Part shown: one piece after another, positions 28,952 through 35,670 of the stretch
How positions within the stretch are numbered: position 1 is the first letter of the stretch
Layout of the letters: each line of letters begins with the position of its first letter
Origin: Comamonadaceae bacterium
GTDB lineage: Bacteria; Pseudomonadota; Gammaproteobacteria; Burkholderiales; Burkholderiaceae_C
NCBI GenBank assembly: GCA_030602185.1
Contig: JAUWAE010000001.1
Coordinates: forward strand, 1,184-65,183
Direction: 5' to 3'
Length of the DNA: 64,000 nt
Notes under the pieces: model-generated
Database searches by the model: none
Told to the model about the DNA's origin: nothing
The model's input: the letters and a program-made list of their open reading frames with translations, nothing else
Position numbers and translations under genes: made by a program

Positions 28952-30759
28952 GGCTGCACCTGCAGGCGGCGCAGGGTTTGCAGCAGCGTCTCGTTGTCCG
29001 GGGCCAGCAGCAGGCCTTCTCGCCACACGGCCAGGGCGGCCTCGCGCTGGTTCAGCACCCAGTGGACCTCGCCCAGGTGGGCGGCGATTTCGGCGTCCGG
29101 CCGGCGCTGGTAGGCGTCGCGCAGGATGCGCAGCGCGTCGCCATGGTTGCCCAGGCGGAACTCGACCCAGCCCAGGCTGTCGAGGATGTAGGGGTCGTTG
29201 GGGGCATGGCGCAGGGCTTGCTGGATCAGGGCTTTGGCTTCGGGCAGGCGCTCGTTGCGGTCGGCCAGGGAATAGCCCAGGGCGTTGTAGGCGTGGTGGA
29301 AGTCGGGCTGGCGGGCAATCAGGGCGCGCAGCAGGCGCTCCATGTCGCTGTGGCGTCCGGCCTTGTCGGCGGCCATGGCGTGTTCGTAGGCCAGGTCGGC
29401 ATCGTCGGGGAAGCGTTCGACGGCGGCGGCATAGGCCTCGAAGGCCAGCGCGTGCTGGCCCACGTCACGCAGCATCTGGGCTTCGGCCATGTATTGCCGG
29501 CGCAGTTCGGCGTCGTCGCGTGCGGCGGGTTGGCGCAGCAGGCGCCGCGCGTCGTCCAGCCGCCCCTGGCGGGCCAGCATGGTGGCACGGCGCAGCTGCG
29601 CTGCCAGCAGCGCATCGGCGTTCTCGATGCGGTCCAGCCAGGCGTTGGCGGCCACGAAATCGCCGCGCTGTTCGGCCGCCTGGGCCAGCTGCAGGAAAGC
29701 CTGGTTCTGGCCCGGGCCCGCTTCGGCAGCTGGCAGGTCGCGTGACAGGGTCAGGTAGCGCTGCAGGGCGGTTTCGGCTGCCTCGGGCTGGCGGCTCTGG
29801 ACCAGCAGGATGCCTTTGAGCAGCCAGGCCTGCGGCAACTCCGGGGCGCTGGCCAGCAGGCGGTCGAGTTCACGCTGGGCGGTGTCCCGCCGGCGCTGGT
29901 CGATCAGCACCCGCACGAACGCCAGGTGGATGCCGGTGCGTGCGTGCGAAGTTGGGGCGTTGGGCAGGTGCACGTAGCGTTCGACCAGGGGCAGGGCACC
30001 GGGTTGCTCGCGCTCCAGCAGTTCGAGGGCGAGCGTGGCGGCCGCGACAGAGCCGGGTTCCTGCGCCAGGGCGCGGCTGGCCGAGGCCAGGGCTTCGAGC
30101 GGTTGGTCTTGCGCCAGCTCCAGCCGGCCGAGGGTAGCCCAGGTCGTGGCGGCGGTGGCGGGGTCGGCCAGCGAAGGCGCCAGCGCCTCGCGCGCCGCCT
30201 GGGCGGCTGCTGTCTTGTCTGCACTGCGGGCCAGCGTCTGGGGAATGGCGGCGATGACCTCGTTGCGGCGTTCGGGTGGGCTCAGCCGGATGATCTGGCG
30301 CAGCGCGTTGGACACCTCGGCCGGCCGGTTGAGTGCGAGCAGGATTTGCAGTTCGTAGCGGTACGGCTCGTCGCTGTTGGGGTGCACCGTGGCCCATTGC
30401 CGGGCCGCGGACAGGGCGGCGTTGCCGGCGCGGCCCTGCAGGGCGATGTCCACCGCCCGCCGGTACAGCTCGGGGCGGCGGGTCCGGTTGGCGGCATCGA
30501 GCACCAGGGAGTAGGCCGATCCTGGGTCGTTGCGGCGCAGTTCCAGCTCACCCAGCAGCAACTGGTAGAACAGCTCGGCGTCCATGTCGGACGAAACGGG
30601 CGCGGCGACAGGTGCCGCGGGCGCTGCCGTTTGTGCCCCGGCGGCCAGGGCGCCGGTGAGGAGGCACAGTGCCACGCCGCGGCGCAGCCAGATGGGTCGG
30701 CGCGGCGGTGGGAACGGGCGCCTGTGCAGGCGGGGGTCGGCAGTGGCTTCCCTGGTCAT
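28948..30759 (-). CDS. Tetratricopeptide-repeat (TPR) protein with signal peptide
   Basis: ORF 28948-31314 trimmed to ATG 30759 (MTREATADPRL...). It has repeated TPR-like A/L/Y-rich 34-mers, and the upstream part of the ORF is antisense to fpg. Confidence 0.7.
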   Translation of the reverse strand: MTREATADPRLHRRPFPPPRRPIWLRRGVALCLLTGALAAGAQTAAPAAPVAAPVSSDMDAELFYQLLLGELELRRNDPGSAYSLVLDAANRTRRPELYRRAVDIALQGRAGNAALSAARQWATVHPNSDEPYRYELQILLALNRPAEVSNALRQIIRLSPPERRNEVIAAIPQTLARSADKTAAAQAAREALAPSLADPATAATTWATLGRLELAQDQPLEALASASRALAQEPGSVAAATLALELLEREQPGALPLVERYVHLPNAPTSHARTGIHLAFVRVLIDQRRRDTAQRELDRLLASAPELPQAWLLKGILLVQSRQPEAAETALQRYLTLSRDLPAAEAGPGQNQAFLQLAQAAEQRGDFVAANAWLDRIENADALLAAQLRRATMLARQGRLDDARRLLRQPAARDDAELRRQYMAEAQMLRDVGQHALAFEAYAAAVERFPDDADLAYEHAMAADKAGRHSDMERLLRALIARQPDFHHAYNALGYSLADRNERLPEAKALIQQALRHAPNDPYILDSLGWVEFRLGNHGDALRILRDAYQRRPDAEIAAHLGEVHWVLNQREAALAVWREGLLLAPDNETLLQTLRRLQVQP

Positions 30760-30805
30760 GCGGCCATGATAATGGAAGGCCGATGTTTCAGCCGTGAGCC
30801 CGCGC

Positions 30806-31621
30806 ATGCCCGAATTGCCCGAAGTGGAAGTGACCCGCCGCAGTTTTGCCGACGCCATTGCTGGTGCGGTGGTGGACGGTGTTTGGCTGGGCAAGCCGCT
30901 GCGCTGGCCGCTGGGTGTGGCGCCTGCCGCGTTGGTGGGGCGCCGGGTGCAGGGGGTGAGGCGCCGGGGCAAGTACCTGCTGCTGGACCTGGACGATGGG
31001 CTGCTCTTGCTGCACCTGGGCATGTCGGGCAGTCTGCAGTTTGCGCCTTCGCTGCCACCGGTGGGGCCGCACGACCATTTTGAGTTGCGCACCGACCGGG
31101 GGGTGTTGCGCCTGCACGATCCGCGCCGTTTTGGCGCCGCGGTGTATGCCGCCGGCGAGCAGGATGCGGTGGCGCGCAAGCTGCTCGGCGGCCTCGGGCC
31201 AGAGCCGTTGACCGAGGCCTTCGACCCGTTCGTGTTCCACGCCGGCCTGCGCCAGCGGCGCGCGGCGATCAAACAGGTGCTGCTGGCGGGTGACCTGGTG
31301 GTGGGCGTGGGCAATATCTATGCGTCGGAGTCGCTGTTTCTGGCCGGCATCCGGCCGACGGTGCGTGCCGACCGCATCAGCCGCCCGCGCGCCTTGCGCT
31401 TGCACGGCGCGATCCGCACGGTGCTGTCCAGGGCACTGGCGGTGGGGGGCAGCACGCTGAAGGACTTTTCCAACGCCCAGGGCCAGAGCGGTTACTTCCA
31501 GCTCGAAACCATGGTGTACGACCGCGCCGGCCAGCCGTGCCGTGTGTGTGGCGCCCCCATCAAGGCCTTGCGCCAGGGCCAGCGCTCGACGTTCTATTGC
31601 CCGGTCTGCCAGAAGCCCTGA
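30806..31621 (+). CDS. mutM: Formamidopyrimidine-DNA glycosylase
   Basis: [10 protein letters not shown]-terminus and C-terminal zinc finger [25 protein letters not shown]. Confidence 0.95.
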
Positions 31622-31707
31622 AGGGTGGCCCCAAGGGCCGCCCAACAGTGATGACAATGCTATATTGCCTTCACCGCCCGGACACCGGGGTCCTACGACA
31701 CACAGCC

Positions 31708-33693
31708 ATGTCATTCAATCAGGAATTCGACGAGCACAGCGCCTGGCGGCAGGCCCAGGCGGCACGGCTTCAGGGTCTGGCCGAATGGCTGGAGGCGCGC
31801 GACCTGCTGGACCCGGGGGCCCGCGAGCGGCTGGAGCAGTTGCGCCACCAGTTGCGCAGCGACAAGGTGATGGTCGCGTTCGTGGCCGAGTTCTCGCGCG
31901 GCAAGTCGGAACTCATCAATGCGGTGTTCTTTGCCGGCTACGGCCGCCGCATCATGCCGGCGAGTGCCGGCCGCACGACCATGTGCCCGACCGAACTGGG
32001 CTACGACGCCGATGTGCCGCCCTGCCTGCGCCTGCTGCCGATTGAGACGCGCCTGCAGCCGCAGTCGCTGCTGGAGTGGCGTGGTGCGCCCGATCAGTGG
32101 GAGCGCATCGACCTGGACGTGAACGACCCCGGGCAGCTTGCGCGCGCGATCGAGAAGGTGGCCGAGGTGCGGCGGGTGACGCAGGACGAGGCCCGGGCGC
32201 TGGGCTTCTGGCACGACGAGGCACCCGAGGACAACCCGCTCGTGGGCCCGGACGGGCTCTACGAGGTGCCGCGCTGGCGCCATGCGCTCATCAACATGGC
32301 CCACCCGCTGCTCAAGCAGGGCCTGGTCATCCTCGACACACCGGGGCTCAACGCCATCGGTGCCGAACCCGAGCTCACCGTCAGCCTGCTGCCACAGGCG
32401 CACGCGGTGGTGTTCATCCTGGCGGCGGATGCCGGGGTCAGCAAGTCGGACCTGGCCATGTGGCGCGAGCACCTGGCGCCAGCCGCCGAACGGCGCGACT
32501 CCCGGCTGGTGGTGCTCAACAAGATCGATACGCTGTGGGACGAACTCAGCACGCCGGCTTACATCGAGGCTCAGATCCAGCGCCAGCGCGAAGCCTCGGC
32601 GCAGGTGCTGGGCCTGAGCCCGGCGCAGGTGATCGCGGTGTCGGCCCAGAAAGGCCTGCTGGCCAAGGTGCGCGATGACGGCCGCCTGCTCACCGAAAGC
32701 CGCCTGCCCGACCTGGAGCGGGCGCTGGCGCAAGACGTGCTGGCGCAGCGCCGCACCATCCTGGTCGAGAGCGTGCAGGCTGGGCTGGAGGCCCTGCACG
32801 CCCAGGTGGAGCAACACCTGCACGCGCGTGGCCGCGAACTCGATGAGCAGCTCCAGGAGCTGGAGGCGCTGCGTGGCAAGAACAGCACCGTCATTCGCCA
32901 GATGCGCCTGCGCATCGAACAGGAACAGGCCGAGTTCGACGCCAGCGGCGCCCGCATCCAGGCGGTGCGCTCGGTGCACCTGAAGTTGCTCAAGGAGGTG
33001 TTCGCCTTGCTGGGCAGCACCCGCCTGAAGGCCGAAATGGCGCAGTTCGCGGCGGCGCTCAAGCAGCCGGGCATCAAGTTGGGTATCCGGCGGGTGTACG
33101 CCGAGGCGTTCGACCGCCTGCGTGCCGGGCTGCAGCAGGCGCAGGCACAGCTGGGCGAGGTGCAGGACATGCTGGGCAGCACTTTTCGCGAGCTCAACAC
33201 CGAGTTCGGCTTCACCCTGCAACTGCCCGAGCGGCTCGACCTGCAACGGCACACCGAGGCACTGGACCTGATCGAGCGCAACCACCTGCAGTACCTGGGG
33301 CTGACCAACCTGTTCCGCTTGTCGCAGCCGGAGTTTGCCGAGCGGCTGGCCAAGGCCGTGTTGTCGCGCTTGAAGGCGGTTTACGAAGCGGCGGCAGACG
33401 AGGTGGAGCTGTGGAACAAGTCGGCCGCGGCCCAGCTCGACGGTCAGCTGCGCGAGCGGCGCAAGACCTTTGCCCGCCGCATTGAGGCGGTGCACCGCAT
33501 TCAGCAGGCTGCGGGCGGACTGGACGAGCGCATTGCCGAGCTGCGCCAGCAACTCGAGCAGCTGGCCCAGGACCGGGAGGCGCTGGAGCGGTTGTCTCGC
33601 GAAGGGGTGGCGGTTACCGAGCCTGCCGAGGCGCCAGCTGCCGCCGTAGACACTCGAGCAGACACGGAAATGGCGACCGATGGCGAACGCTGA
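31708..33693 (+). CDS. Dynamin-family large GTPase (bacterial dynamin-like protein)
   Basis: ATG 31708 within ORF 31537-33693. G1 is AEFSRGKSELINA, G3 is ILDTPGLNA, G4 is VLNKID. The C-terminal half is long, helical and coiled-coil-like. Confidence 0.8.
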   Translation: MSFNQEFDEHSAWRQAQAARLQGLAEWLEARDLLDPGARERLEQLRHQLRSDKVMVAFVAEFSRGKSELINAVFFAGYGRRIMPASAGRTTMCPTELGYDADVPPCLRLLPIETRLQPQSLLEWRGAPDQWERIDLDVNDPGQLARAIEKVAEVRRVTQDEARALGFWHDEAPEDNPLVGPDGLYEVPRWRHALINMAHPLLKQGLVILDTPGLNAIGAEPELTVSLLPQAHAVVFILAADAGVSKSDLAMWREHLAPAAERRDSRLVVLNKIDTLWDELSTPAYIEAQIQRQREASAQVLGLSPAQVIAVSAQKGLLAKVRDDGRLLTESRLPDLERALAQDVLAQRRTILVESVQAGLEALHAQVEQHLHARGRELDEQLQELEALRGKNSTVIRQMRLRIEQEQAEFDASGARIQAVRSVHLKLLKEVFALLGSTRLKAEMAQFAAALKQPGIKLGIRRVYAEAFDRLRAGLQQAQAQLGEVQDMLGSTFRELNTEFGFTLQLPERLDLQRHTEALDLIERNHLQYLGLTNLFRLSQPEFAERLAKAVLSRLKAVYEAAADEVELWNKSAAAQLDGQLRERRKTFARRIEAVHRIQQAAGGLDERIAELRQQLEQLAQDREALERLSREGVAVTEPAEAPAAAVDTRADTEMATDGER

Positions 33694-34777
33694 CCGGCCC
33701 CGCGCGGGGCCGGAGATTGGCCAGGCTGCGTTTTTTGAAGCGGTGGTGCGTTGGCAAACCACCCATGGCCGGCATGGCCTGCCTTGGCAGGGCACGCACA
33801 ATCCTTACCGGGTGTGGCTGTCGGAGATCATGCTCCAGCAGACCCAGGTGACCACGGTGCTGGACTACTACCCCCGTTTCCTCGCGCGCTTCCCCGACGT
33901 GCAGACCTTGGCCGCGGCCGAACTGGACGAGGTGTTGGCGTTGTGGAGCGGCCTGGGCTATTACAGCCGGGCGCGCAACCTGCACGCCTGCGCCCGCCAG
34001 GTCGTGAACGACTGGGGTGGGCGGTTTCCCTCGCGTGCGGCCGCCCTCCAGACGCTCCAGGGCATCGGCCGCTCCACCGCGGCCGCGATCGCGGCGTTCT
34101 GCTACGGCGAGCCGGTGACGATCCTGGACGGCAATGTCAAGCGTGTGTTGTCGCGCCTGCTGGCGTTCGAAGGTGATCTGGCGCAGGCCGCGCAGGAGCG
34201 CCGGTTGTGGGACCTGGCCCAGGCGCAGGTGCCCTCCCAGGCCGGTCACAGCGAGATGATTGCCTACACGCAGGGCTTGATGGACCTGGGCGCCACGGTC
34301 TGTCATCGGTCCCGGCCCGACTGCTTGCTGTGTCCTGCCGCCGACCTTTGCGAGGCCCGGTCATCGGCGCGGATGGCGGAGTTTCCGGTTCGCACGCGCC
34401 GGCTGGTGCGGCGTACCGAGGCGTGGTGGTGGCTGGTGTTGCGCCGTGCCGATGGGGCGTGCTGGGTGCAGCAGCGGCCGGCCCGCGGCATCTGGGCCGG
34501 GTTGTACGCCTTCCCGGTGTACCACACGGCCACCGAGGCCAAGGCTGCGCTGGAGGCGGCCACTGGTTACCCCGTGGCAGTGACCGAGCACCCGGTCGTG
34601 CGCCATGCCCTGACGCACCGCGACCTGTTGCTGCACCCGCTGGAGTGCGACTGGCCCGCTACCCACCAGCTGCCCGAGGCCTGGGGCCCGGGCCAATGGC
34701 TGGACGAATCCCGCGCCGACGCGCTGGGGTTGCCCACGCCGGTGCGTAGCTGGTTGAAAGGCCGTACCGGCGGCTGA
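33680..34777 (+). CDS. mutY: A/G-specific adenine DNA glycosylase
   Basis: HhH-GPD core (YRVWLSEIMLQQTQV, GLGYYSRARNL) and Fe-S loop CHRSRPDCLLCPAADLC. The start overlaps the dynamin-like gene by 14 nt. Confidence 0.95.
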   Translation: MANADRPRAGPEIGQAAFFEAVVRWQTTHGRHGLPWQGTHNPYRVWLSEIMLQQTQVTTVLDYYPRFLARFPDVQTLAAAELDEVLALWSGLGYYSRARNLHACARQVVNDWGGRFPSRAAALQTLQGIGRSTAAAIAAFCYGEPVTILDGNVKRVLSRLLAFEGDLAQAAQERRLWDLAQAQVPSQAGHSEMIAYTQGLMDLGATVCHRSRPDCLLCPAADLCEARSSARMAEFPVRTRRLVRRTEAWWWLVLRRADGACWVQQRPARGIWAGLYAFPVYHTATEAKAALEAATGYPVAVTEHPVVRHALTHRDLLLHPLECDWPATHQLPEAWGPGQWLDESRADALGLPTPVRSWLKGRTGG

Positions 34778-34785
34778 CGTGGCTG

Positions 34786-35670
34786 TCAGCCGTTGAAGCG
34801 CAGTGCGTCGAGCTCGCGGTGCCGGCGCTGAACCGGCCAGTCTTGCCCGAAGGTCGCGGCCAGCCGCTCCACCAGGTAGACCGAACGGTGCTGCCCCCCG
34901 GTGCAGCCGATGGCCACGGTGGCGTAGCTGCGGTGGTCGGCCACCATGCGGGGCAACCAGCGCTGCAGGAATTCGGTGATCTGCGCCTCCATGGCCTGCA
35001 CCTCGGCTTCGGCGGCGAGGAAGCGCGCGACGGGCGCGTCCTGGCCGGTCAGCAGGCGCAGATCGGGCTCGTAGTGCGGGTTGGGCAGCATGCGCACGTC
35101 GAACACGAAGTCGGCATCCATGGGGATGCCGCGTTTGAACGCGAACGATTCAAAGACCAGAGTCAGCGTGGCCGGTGCGCGGCTGAGCAGCTGTTTGATC
35201 TCGCTGCGCAGGTGCGACGCTTTGAGGTGGCTGGTGTCGAGCACCAGGGCTTGGTCGCGCAGTTCGCTCAGCAGCTCGCGCTCCTGCTCGATGGCATCGA
35301 CCAGGGCGCGCCGCTGGTCTTGCGAGTCCTTCAGCGACAGGGGATGCAGGCGCCGCGTTTCGGAGAAGCGGCGCACCAGGGTGTCGGTGGTGGTGTCCAG
35401 GAACACGGCAGTGAGCGGCTGGCCGCGCGACTGGATCTGGCGCAGCCGTTGTGGCAGGCCCGGCAGCGACTGGGCGCTGCGCACGTCCATGGCCACCGCC
35501 ACCCGCTCGGCCCGGTGCGCCTGCTCCACCTCGATGAAGGGCTCCAGCAGCTCGGGCGGCAGGTTGTCCACACAATAGAAACCGGCGTCCTCCAGCGCGT
35601 GCAGCGCCACCGATTTGCCCGAGCCGGACATCCCGGTGATCAGCACCAGTTGCATGGCGGGGGTGCTCAT
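34786..35670 (-). CDS. rapZ: RNase adapter protein RapZ
   Basis: Walker [15 protein letters not shown]. The ATG at 35670 overlaps the recN stop (ATGA); the alternative start is 35655. Confidence 0.9.

Follow-up and report, generated by a model that had tools for sequence, protein, structure and literature searches.

A solo dynamin-like GTPase gene between fpg and mutY, and its probable transcription unit with mutY, in a Comamonadaceae bacterium

The fpg-BDLP-mutY locus and its conservation

A stretch of 64,000 nucleotides from a Comamonadaceae bacterium (contig JAUWAE010000001.1 of assembly GCA_030602185.1; hereafter the window) carries three consecutive genes on the plus strand: fpg (mutM; 30806-31621), encoding a formamidopyrimidine-DNA glycosylase of 271 aa, a gene for a 661-aa large GTPase of the bacterial dynamin-like protein (BDLP) class (31708-33693), and mutY (33680-34777), encoding an A/G-specific adenine glycosylase of 365 aa. 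The two outer genes belong to the 8-oxoguanine (8-oxoG, or GO) repair system. NCBIfam equivalogs matched above their cut-offs, together with the catalytic signatures present, identify them as true fpg and mutY: Fpg matches PRK01103 (3.7e-92) as well as Pfam Fapy_DNA_glyco, H2TH and zf-FPG, and has both the N-terminal PELPEVE and the C-terminal zinc finger, while MutY matches TIGR01084 (1.3e-101) and contains the Fe-S motif CX6CX2CX5C and a NUDIX-like C-terminal domain (NUDIX_4). We place the fpg start at the ATG at 30806, which gives the obligatory MPELPEVE N-terminus, in place of the GTG at 30794 in the list of open reading frames; the BDLP start at 31708 is backed by the N-terminus MSFNQEFDEH, which is kept in homologues.

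A gap of 86 nt (31622-31707) separates fpg from BDLP. At the other end, the BDLP stop and the mutY start overlap by 14 nt on the plus strand (33680-33693; mutY ATG at 33680, BDLP TGA at 33691-33693), and the mutY start is contained in the last codons of the C-terminal tail of BDLP. These boundaries, with the fpg end at 31621, reproduce those of a first-pass annotation made from the sequence of the window. Its description of a single BDLP also stood, as a phmmer search of the protein against all window open reading frames of at least 100 aa matched itself only; related loci are likewise single-copy for the dynamin gene.

We then compared the locus across Comamonadaceae, taking one genome per species, which yielded 80 loci drawn from Macromonas, Tepidimonas, Tepidicella, Hydrogenophaga, Polaromonas, Ramlibacter, Brachymonas and other members of the family. 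The BDLPs of these loci share 60-83% identity with the window protein, the best named match overall being that of Aquabacterium sp. A08 (87%). Directly upstream of BDLP lies fpg in all 78 loci with upstream sequence, and directly downstream lies mutY in 76 of the 78 with downstream sequence. The complete fpg-BDLP-mutY order is found in 75 of the 80 loci, the other five being contig ends or mutY-only loss; in a Brachymonas locus (L079) and in L080, the fpg-BDLP pair is kept and other genes follow downstream. This recurrence in independent loci argues that the arrangement is more than chance. Over the 80 loci, the conservation of BDLP exceeds that of MutY and equals or exceeds that of the neighbouring RecN and RapZ.

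An exhaustive homologue search of 1.84 billion cluster representatives (50% clustering) found 2941 relatives, 486 of them below 1e-30; among the 150 matches listed, many are full-length (about 650 aa), down to 30% identity. Gene contexts were inspected for representatives of the main branches, and the fpg-BDLP-mutY order was also found in Saezia sanguinis (BDLP 41% identity), Cupriavidus, Noviherbaspirillum, two further lineages (46-48%) and the lineage of P0160, whose closest named relative is Imbroritus primus. In Sulfuriferula sp. AH1 (L099) and one further lineage (L094), fpg and BDLP are adjacent without mutY and the flanks are entirely different, and in L086 an HD-domain gene stands between fpg and BDLP. 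Altogether mutY is missing from the locus in at least four lineages: Sulfuriferula, Brachymonas and two others. The fpg-BDLP-mutY arrangement is thus ancient, spans the order Burkholderiales and is not strain-specific, which disposes of the objection, anticipated in the first-pass annotation, that it might be unique to this strain.

The best explanation of these data is that BDLP is a vertically inherited housekeeping gene, because its GC content equals that of its flanks and is uniform over the region, no match was found in phages and only one weak match in a plasmid search, conservation is strong and the family is large. The surrounding genes lie on the minus strand, with ispE, lolB and a gene for a tetratricopeptide repeat (TPR) protein upstream and rapZ, recN and a NAD kinase gene downstream.

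A few local features of individual loci were recorded alongside. Insertions of about 250 nt between BDLP and mutY (L031, 7935-8190), about 3 kb between the TPR gene and fpg (L019, 2117-5127) and about 1 kb between mutY and rapZ (L070, 8662-9753) were observed. About 3 kb upstream of the fpg-BDLP pair of L094 (BDLP homologue P0145) is a type III CRISPR Cas10/Csm1-like gene, which is unrelated to the present finding.

Promoter element, hairpin and predicted transcription units

Comparison of the fpg-BDLP gaps revealed TGCTATATTG, an extended -10-like element (TGn + TATATT) at 31658-31667 on the plus strand, 40 nt ahead of the BDLP start codon. Of the 80 Comamonadaceae loci, 63 have a single copy of this invariant 10-mer, always on the same strand and 20-50 nt before the BDLP start, amid otherwise unalignable GC-rich intergenic DNA; it is found nowhere else in those 63 loci (12-14 kb each), and has a single match in the whole 64-kb window. 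Most of the remaining loci, and some more distant lineages, have one of the near-variants TGCTATAGT, TGCTACATT and TGCTAGGCT at the same place. No conserved -35 element was found upstream of TGCTATATTG across the compared loci, and a scan for consensus promoters and terminators returned nothing in 30500-35000, the promoter element having emerged only by locus comparison. Judged by its sequence, TGCTATATTG reads as an extended -10 promoter of constitutive appearance. Nothing was found that points to the shared oxidative-stress regulon proposed in the first-pass annotation; no OxyR-, SoxR- or LexA-like element was seen on reading the fpg-BDLP gap, of which no formal motif scan was made.

Two observations concern the element itself. 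A hairpin around TGCTATATTG, suggested by apparent inverted repeats on its flanks in several loci, was considered and rejected, the mean length of the best stem being 3.62 with the true flanks against 3.52 +/- 0.14 with re-paired flanks. In a Macromonas metagenome-assembled genome (MAG; L002, 4691-4709), TATATT is only 7 nt from the BDLP ATG, and the BDLP mRNA may be leaderless in that lineage.

Just after the fpg stop, a GC hairpin with a perfect 9-bp stem is predicted on the plus strand (GGGTGGCCC-CAA-GGGCCGCCC, 31623-31643), and the region 31622-31720 folds with z = -3.3. The hairpin was missed by the terminator scan because it has no U-tract, and is a candidate terminator or 3' stabiliser for fpg. 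GC-rich inverted repeats after fpg were noticed by eye in several related loci, for example L018 and L005. A search of the window for known RNA families gave tRNAs only.

For 70 loci the gene boundaries were computable. In 45 of them mutY starts before BDLP has ended, mostly through a 4-nt ATGA overlap, and the overlap in Noviherbaspirillum is also 4 nt; the gap between fpg and BDLP has a median of 74 nt (range 30-273 nt) and never becomes an overlap. The conservation of the stop/start overlap strongly suggests that BDLP and mutY are co-transcribed, as the first-pass annotation had argued from the window, and the 14-nt overlap is consistent with translational coupling from BDLP to mutY. By contrast, fpg appears to be a separate transcription unit, because a hairpin and then a promoter sit in the 86-nt gap that follows it. 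Taken together, the overlap, the conserved TGCTATATTG and the fpg hairpin make it likely that the locus is read as fpg alone, followed by a promoter-BDLP-mutY unit.

At the far end of this predicted unit, mutY (plus strand) and rapZ (minus strand) converge, their stop codons only 8 nt apart and both within the short inverted repeat GCTGAC-GTGGCT-GTCAGC (window 34772-34789), which could be a shared bidirectional hairpin.

Domain structure and fold class of the GTPase

BDLP matches Pfam Dynamin_N at 2.5e-14 (54 bits, cut-off 27). From motif coordinates and family conservation, its GTPase (G) domain spans residues 54-331 (31867-32700, plus strand, as for all features of the protein), with G1 AEFSRGKS at residues 60-67 (31885-31908), switch I GRTTMCPTE at 88-96 (31969-31995), G3 DTPGLNA at 210-216 (32335-32355) and G4 NKID at 271-274 (32518-32529). 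The intactness of G1, G3 and G4 had been noted previously and was reproduced here; the G-domain motifs are invariant within the order and at least 90% conserved over the whole family. The GTPase domain is intact by its motifs, and the protein is probably active.

An AlphaFold2 model built with 30 homologues as input (mean pLDDT 73.8) has two N-terminal helices (residues 3-50), the G domain, and an all-helical region from 333 to 631, in agreement with the long helical C-terminal half described in the first-pass annotation. The secondary structure of this model defines an all-helical stalk at residues 332-631 (32701-33600), in which two helices of about 100 residues each surround a smaller helical tip region (437-540). 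A variable, acidic and disordered C-terminal tail follows (residues 632-661, 33601-33690), with pLDDT below 50 for 634-661 and unconserved alignment columns. When the model was searched against the PDB with Foldseek, the top matches were all of the BDLP class, namely Nostoc BDLP 2J69 (6.6e-14), IniA, Cj-DLP1/2, LeoA and the mitofusins, with probability 1.0; their TM-scores are low (0.3-0.4), as expected because the stalks are flexible. A PDB sequence search returned the same families, matching weakly. Pfam, motifs and Foldseek thus agree with the dynamin-family identity given in the first-pass annotation, and by sequence and model BDLP is a true BDLP/mitofusin-class dynamin, with a large orthologous family behind it.

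The closest structural match, Nostoc punctiforme BDLP1 (2J68/2J69), shares a dynamin G domain followed by a long helical neck and trunk, and a weak sequence match over the G3-G4 region; identity is only about 13%, however, and no hydrophobic paddle was found at the stalk tip of the window protein. Mycobacterial IniA (6J72/6J73) belongs to the same fold class (E = 8e-12). Its gene shares the iniBAC stress operon with that of a second dynamin, IniC, and the protein has a lipid-binding tip loop, whereas neither a second dynamin nor such a loop was found in the window locus. More generally, in contrast to the paired dynamins (the DynA fusion, Cj-DLP1/2 and IniA/IniC), no second dynamin gene or domain adjoins the window BDLP.

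Longer homologues (730-885 aa) differ by disordered acidic or proline-rich extensions, and no fusion to a repair, DNA-binding or membrane domain was found among those examined. P0142, P0147, P0179 and P0200 (820-885 aa) have C-terminal extensions of 150-220 residues that are extremely acidic or proline-rich and contain no Pfam domain; in P0190 a comparable disordered N-terminal stretch of about 190 residues precedes the conserved part. The window BDLP ends in a short acidic tail of the same kind.

Other gene contexts and possible functions

The family comprises at least two groups of paralogues. The fpg-type group contains the window protein and those of Cupriavidus, Noviherbaspirillum, Sulfuriferula and the Methylophilaceae (P0446), with mutual identities of 39-65%; the yggT-type group shares about 29-41% identity with it, and assemblies labelled Methylotenera hold both groups. 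In all three cases inspected (a Methylotenera genome, a gammaproteobacterial MAG and one further contig), the yggT-type gene follows (yggS)-proC-yggT(-yggU), which is a second fixed housekeeping context for such GTPases. These genes (L083, 4633-6543; L088, 5001-6995; L090, 5001-7031; about 30-38% identity) adjoin pilT/pilU, and yggS was not seen in L088.

A metagenome scan around the Methylophilaceae P0446 gave 80 further loci (L102-L181, e.g. L153, 161-10646), which share a uniform context: ubiB, ubiJ, ubiE and a GBBH_N gene on the minus strand, then BDLP, then rpoH, ftsX, ftsE and ftsY on the minus strand. None of these 80 loci contains mutY; of the 50 with full flank, 14 show fpg some 4 kb upstream, on the other side of the ubiquinone operon. 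In Methylophilaceae the fpg-type dynamin is therefore a lone single-gene unit, with fpg staying in the neighbourhood. Given the varied contexts of the Methylophilaceae gene and the yggT-type paralogues, gene position by itself does not establish a repair function. The first-pass placement of BDLP within an 8-oxoG repair locus is supported in part: fpg and mutY do flank the gene, but fpg appears to be its own unit and the subfamily does not always adjoin these genes.

E. coli provides a useful comparison. There mutM stands in the same-strand string rpmB-rpmG-mutM and mutY in mutY-yggX-mltC-nupG, so that in this species the GO glycosylase genes share a strand with functionally unrelated genes; unlike in the window, where both flank one dynamin gene, the two E. 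coli genes are 0.7 Mb apart and no dynamin is present. The statement that Fpg and MutY are usually unlinked is hence true of E. coli and does not extend to this order, in which they form one conserved neighbourhood. In E. coli K-12 (L100, 3090000-3108000), yqgE-yqgF, yggR, yggS-yggT-yggU-rdgB-hemW and mutY all fall within 11 kb, the yggT context and mutY being 6.3 kb apart. It is tempting, if speculative, to suppose that the yggT, the ruvX/pyr (Sulfuriferula) and the mutY contexts descend from one old proteobacterial neighbourhood; no homologues of yggS, yggT, yqgF or rdgB were found in the 64-kb window.

What might the protein do? We favour, with about an even chance of its being right, a conventional BDLP: a GTPase that would self-assemble and act at a surface in the cell, the inner membrane with peripheral attachment being the most likely site, and whose tie to the GO genes would lie in co-expression and inheritance. 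Under this proposal, transcription would be organised as fpg, the hairpin and then a promoter-BDLP-mutY unit, with MutY synthesis riding on BDLP transcription and, probably, translation. By analogy with other BDLPs, the protein would work by GTP-dependent self-assembly on a large cellular surface, most probably the cytoplasmic face of the inner membrane, to which it would be peripherally bound. Its tie to the 8-oxoG genes would then be one of ancient neighbourhood and co-expression, and not a role in base excision repair.

Several results weigh against this proposal. A 19-residue hydropathy scan of BDLP found neither a transmembrane segment nor a hydrophobic paddle, the top value (1.53, residues 222-241) falling on a beta-strand of the G-domain core; the protein as a whole is acidic (net charge -16). 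As no membrane-binding element was found, the membrane step draws on class homology only; peripheral binding through a basic loop (KQPGIKLGIRR, residues 452-462) is possible. The fpg-BDLP pair survives in the rearranged contexts of Sulfuriferula (L099) and L094, and the putative translational coupling to mutY is widespread, both being signals that often mark functional partners. A full-text literature search found no experimental or expression data on any member of the subfamily.

These same signals would be explained if BDLP were a functional partner of the GO glycosylases, a cytosolic dynamin-like GTPase associated with the nucleoid or replisome that concentrates MutY, and perhaps Fpg, where DNA has just been replicated, or delivers them there. 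We consider this the less likely reading, yet a serious rival, and it gathers a good deal to itself: the stop/start overlap with mutY in most Comamonadaceae and in Noviherbaspirillum, the adjacency to fpg throughout Comamonadaceae (78/78) and in Cupriavidus, Noviherbaspirillum, Saezia, Sulfuriferula and others, two of them with unrelated flanks, and the failure to find a paddle or transmembrane segment, which makes a non-membrane role plausible. It also has a precedent for a nucleoid-acting dynamin-like protein in E. coli CrfC (PMC6374313), the only precedent known for such a protein at work on replicating DNA. CrfC binds the sliding clamp. Set against it, however, the Methylophilaceae member is monocistronic and adjoins neither glycosylase gene, at least four lineages have no mutY at the locus, longer homologues add disordered tails and never a repair domain, and the E. 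coli GO genes sit among functionally unrelated genes. Moreover, the net negative charge is joined by the lack of any recognisable DNA-binding domain or clamp-binding motif (QLxLF-type) in the BDLP sequence, and similarity to CrfC/RdcA is limited to the G domain. A more specific form, in which the subfamily is a mechanochemical GO accessory, kept stoichiometric with MutY by coupling and arranging MutY, perhaps together with Fpg, on the nucleoid or in the wake of the replication fork, seems to us quite unlikely. What can be said is that the link to repair is real in gene organisation, and that any mechanism behind it is putative.

The likeness to CrfC, also called YjdA or RdcA, raises a different possibility, namely a regulatory GTPase that senses cell state and controls another enzyme by contact, in which case gene position would be irrelevant. 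Both proteins are cytosolic dynamin-like GTPases without a membrane anchor, BDLP is soluble and acidic with a long helical stalk and no paddle, and the current annotation of E. coli YjdA is 'regulator of diguanylate cyclase RdcA' (PMC6510439). The homology is distant, however, covering only the G domain (hhalign 71% probability; BLASTP fragments only), and we rejected orthology on this ground. The window locus has no rdcB/yjcZ-like partner gene, with mutY downstream instead, and no candidate target enzyme recurs across contexts, all of which leaves such a regulator improbable. Least probable by far is an anti-phage dynamin of the Eleos (LeoABC) type, a role considered since some dynamin-like proteins defend against phages (bioRxiv 10.1101/2022.05.11.491447). 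LeoA of enterotoxigenic E. coli (ETEC; 4AUR) is of the same fold class and likewise has no paddle, and PADLOC returned weak matches to LeoBC (7.8e-11) and LeoA (7e-4), although these reflect generic dynamin similarity. LeoA acts with the adjacent LeoB and LeoC, often on mobile or defence islands, whereas the window gene is single, core and vertically inherited; with no LeoA/LeoBC pair, a fixed position among core genes across the order, a composition matching the host, no copies in phages and essentially none in plasmids, we rejected membership of this system.

Databases already name these proteins 'dynamin family protein', and our full-text literature search found no paper on this subfamily, its promoter or a dynamin-mutY/fpg linkage; literature on the E. 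coli mutY operon gave incidental mentions only. The window BDLP thus adds a new, uncharacterised protein to a known class, and its probable operon with an antimutator gene had not been reported. Although dynamin-like proteins are common among bacteria, a function is known for only a few, nearly all of them membrane-related; the present subfamily is large, strongly conserved and single-copy, and occurs in Betaproteobacteria of environmental and biotechnological importance such as Cupriavidus, Hydrogenophaga, Polaromonas and Ramlibacter. As the BDLP promoter and translation appear to drive expression of mutY, an insertion or polar mutation in BDLP should reduce MutY and increase G:C to T:A mutation rates, a polarity that matters to engineering and transposon screens in these organisms. 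The arrangement also offers a sharp and cheap genetic test of whether a dynamin-like GTPase acts in DNA repair. Should it have no repair role, the locus would still be a clean case of a DNA-repair gene in a mixed operon; if the GO-accessory reading were true, this would be the first dynamin-like GTPase in base excision repair.

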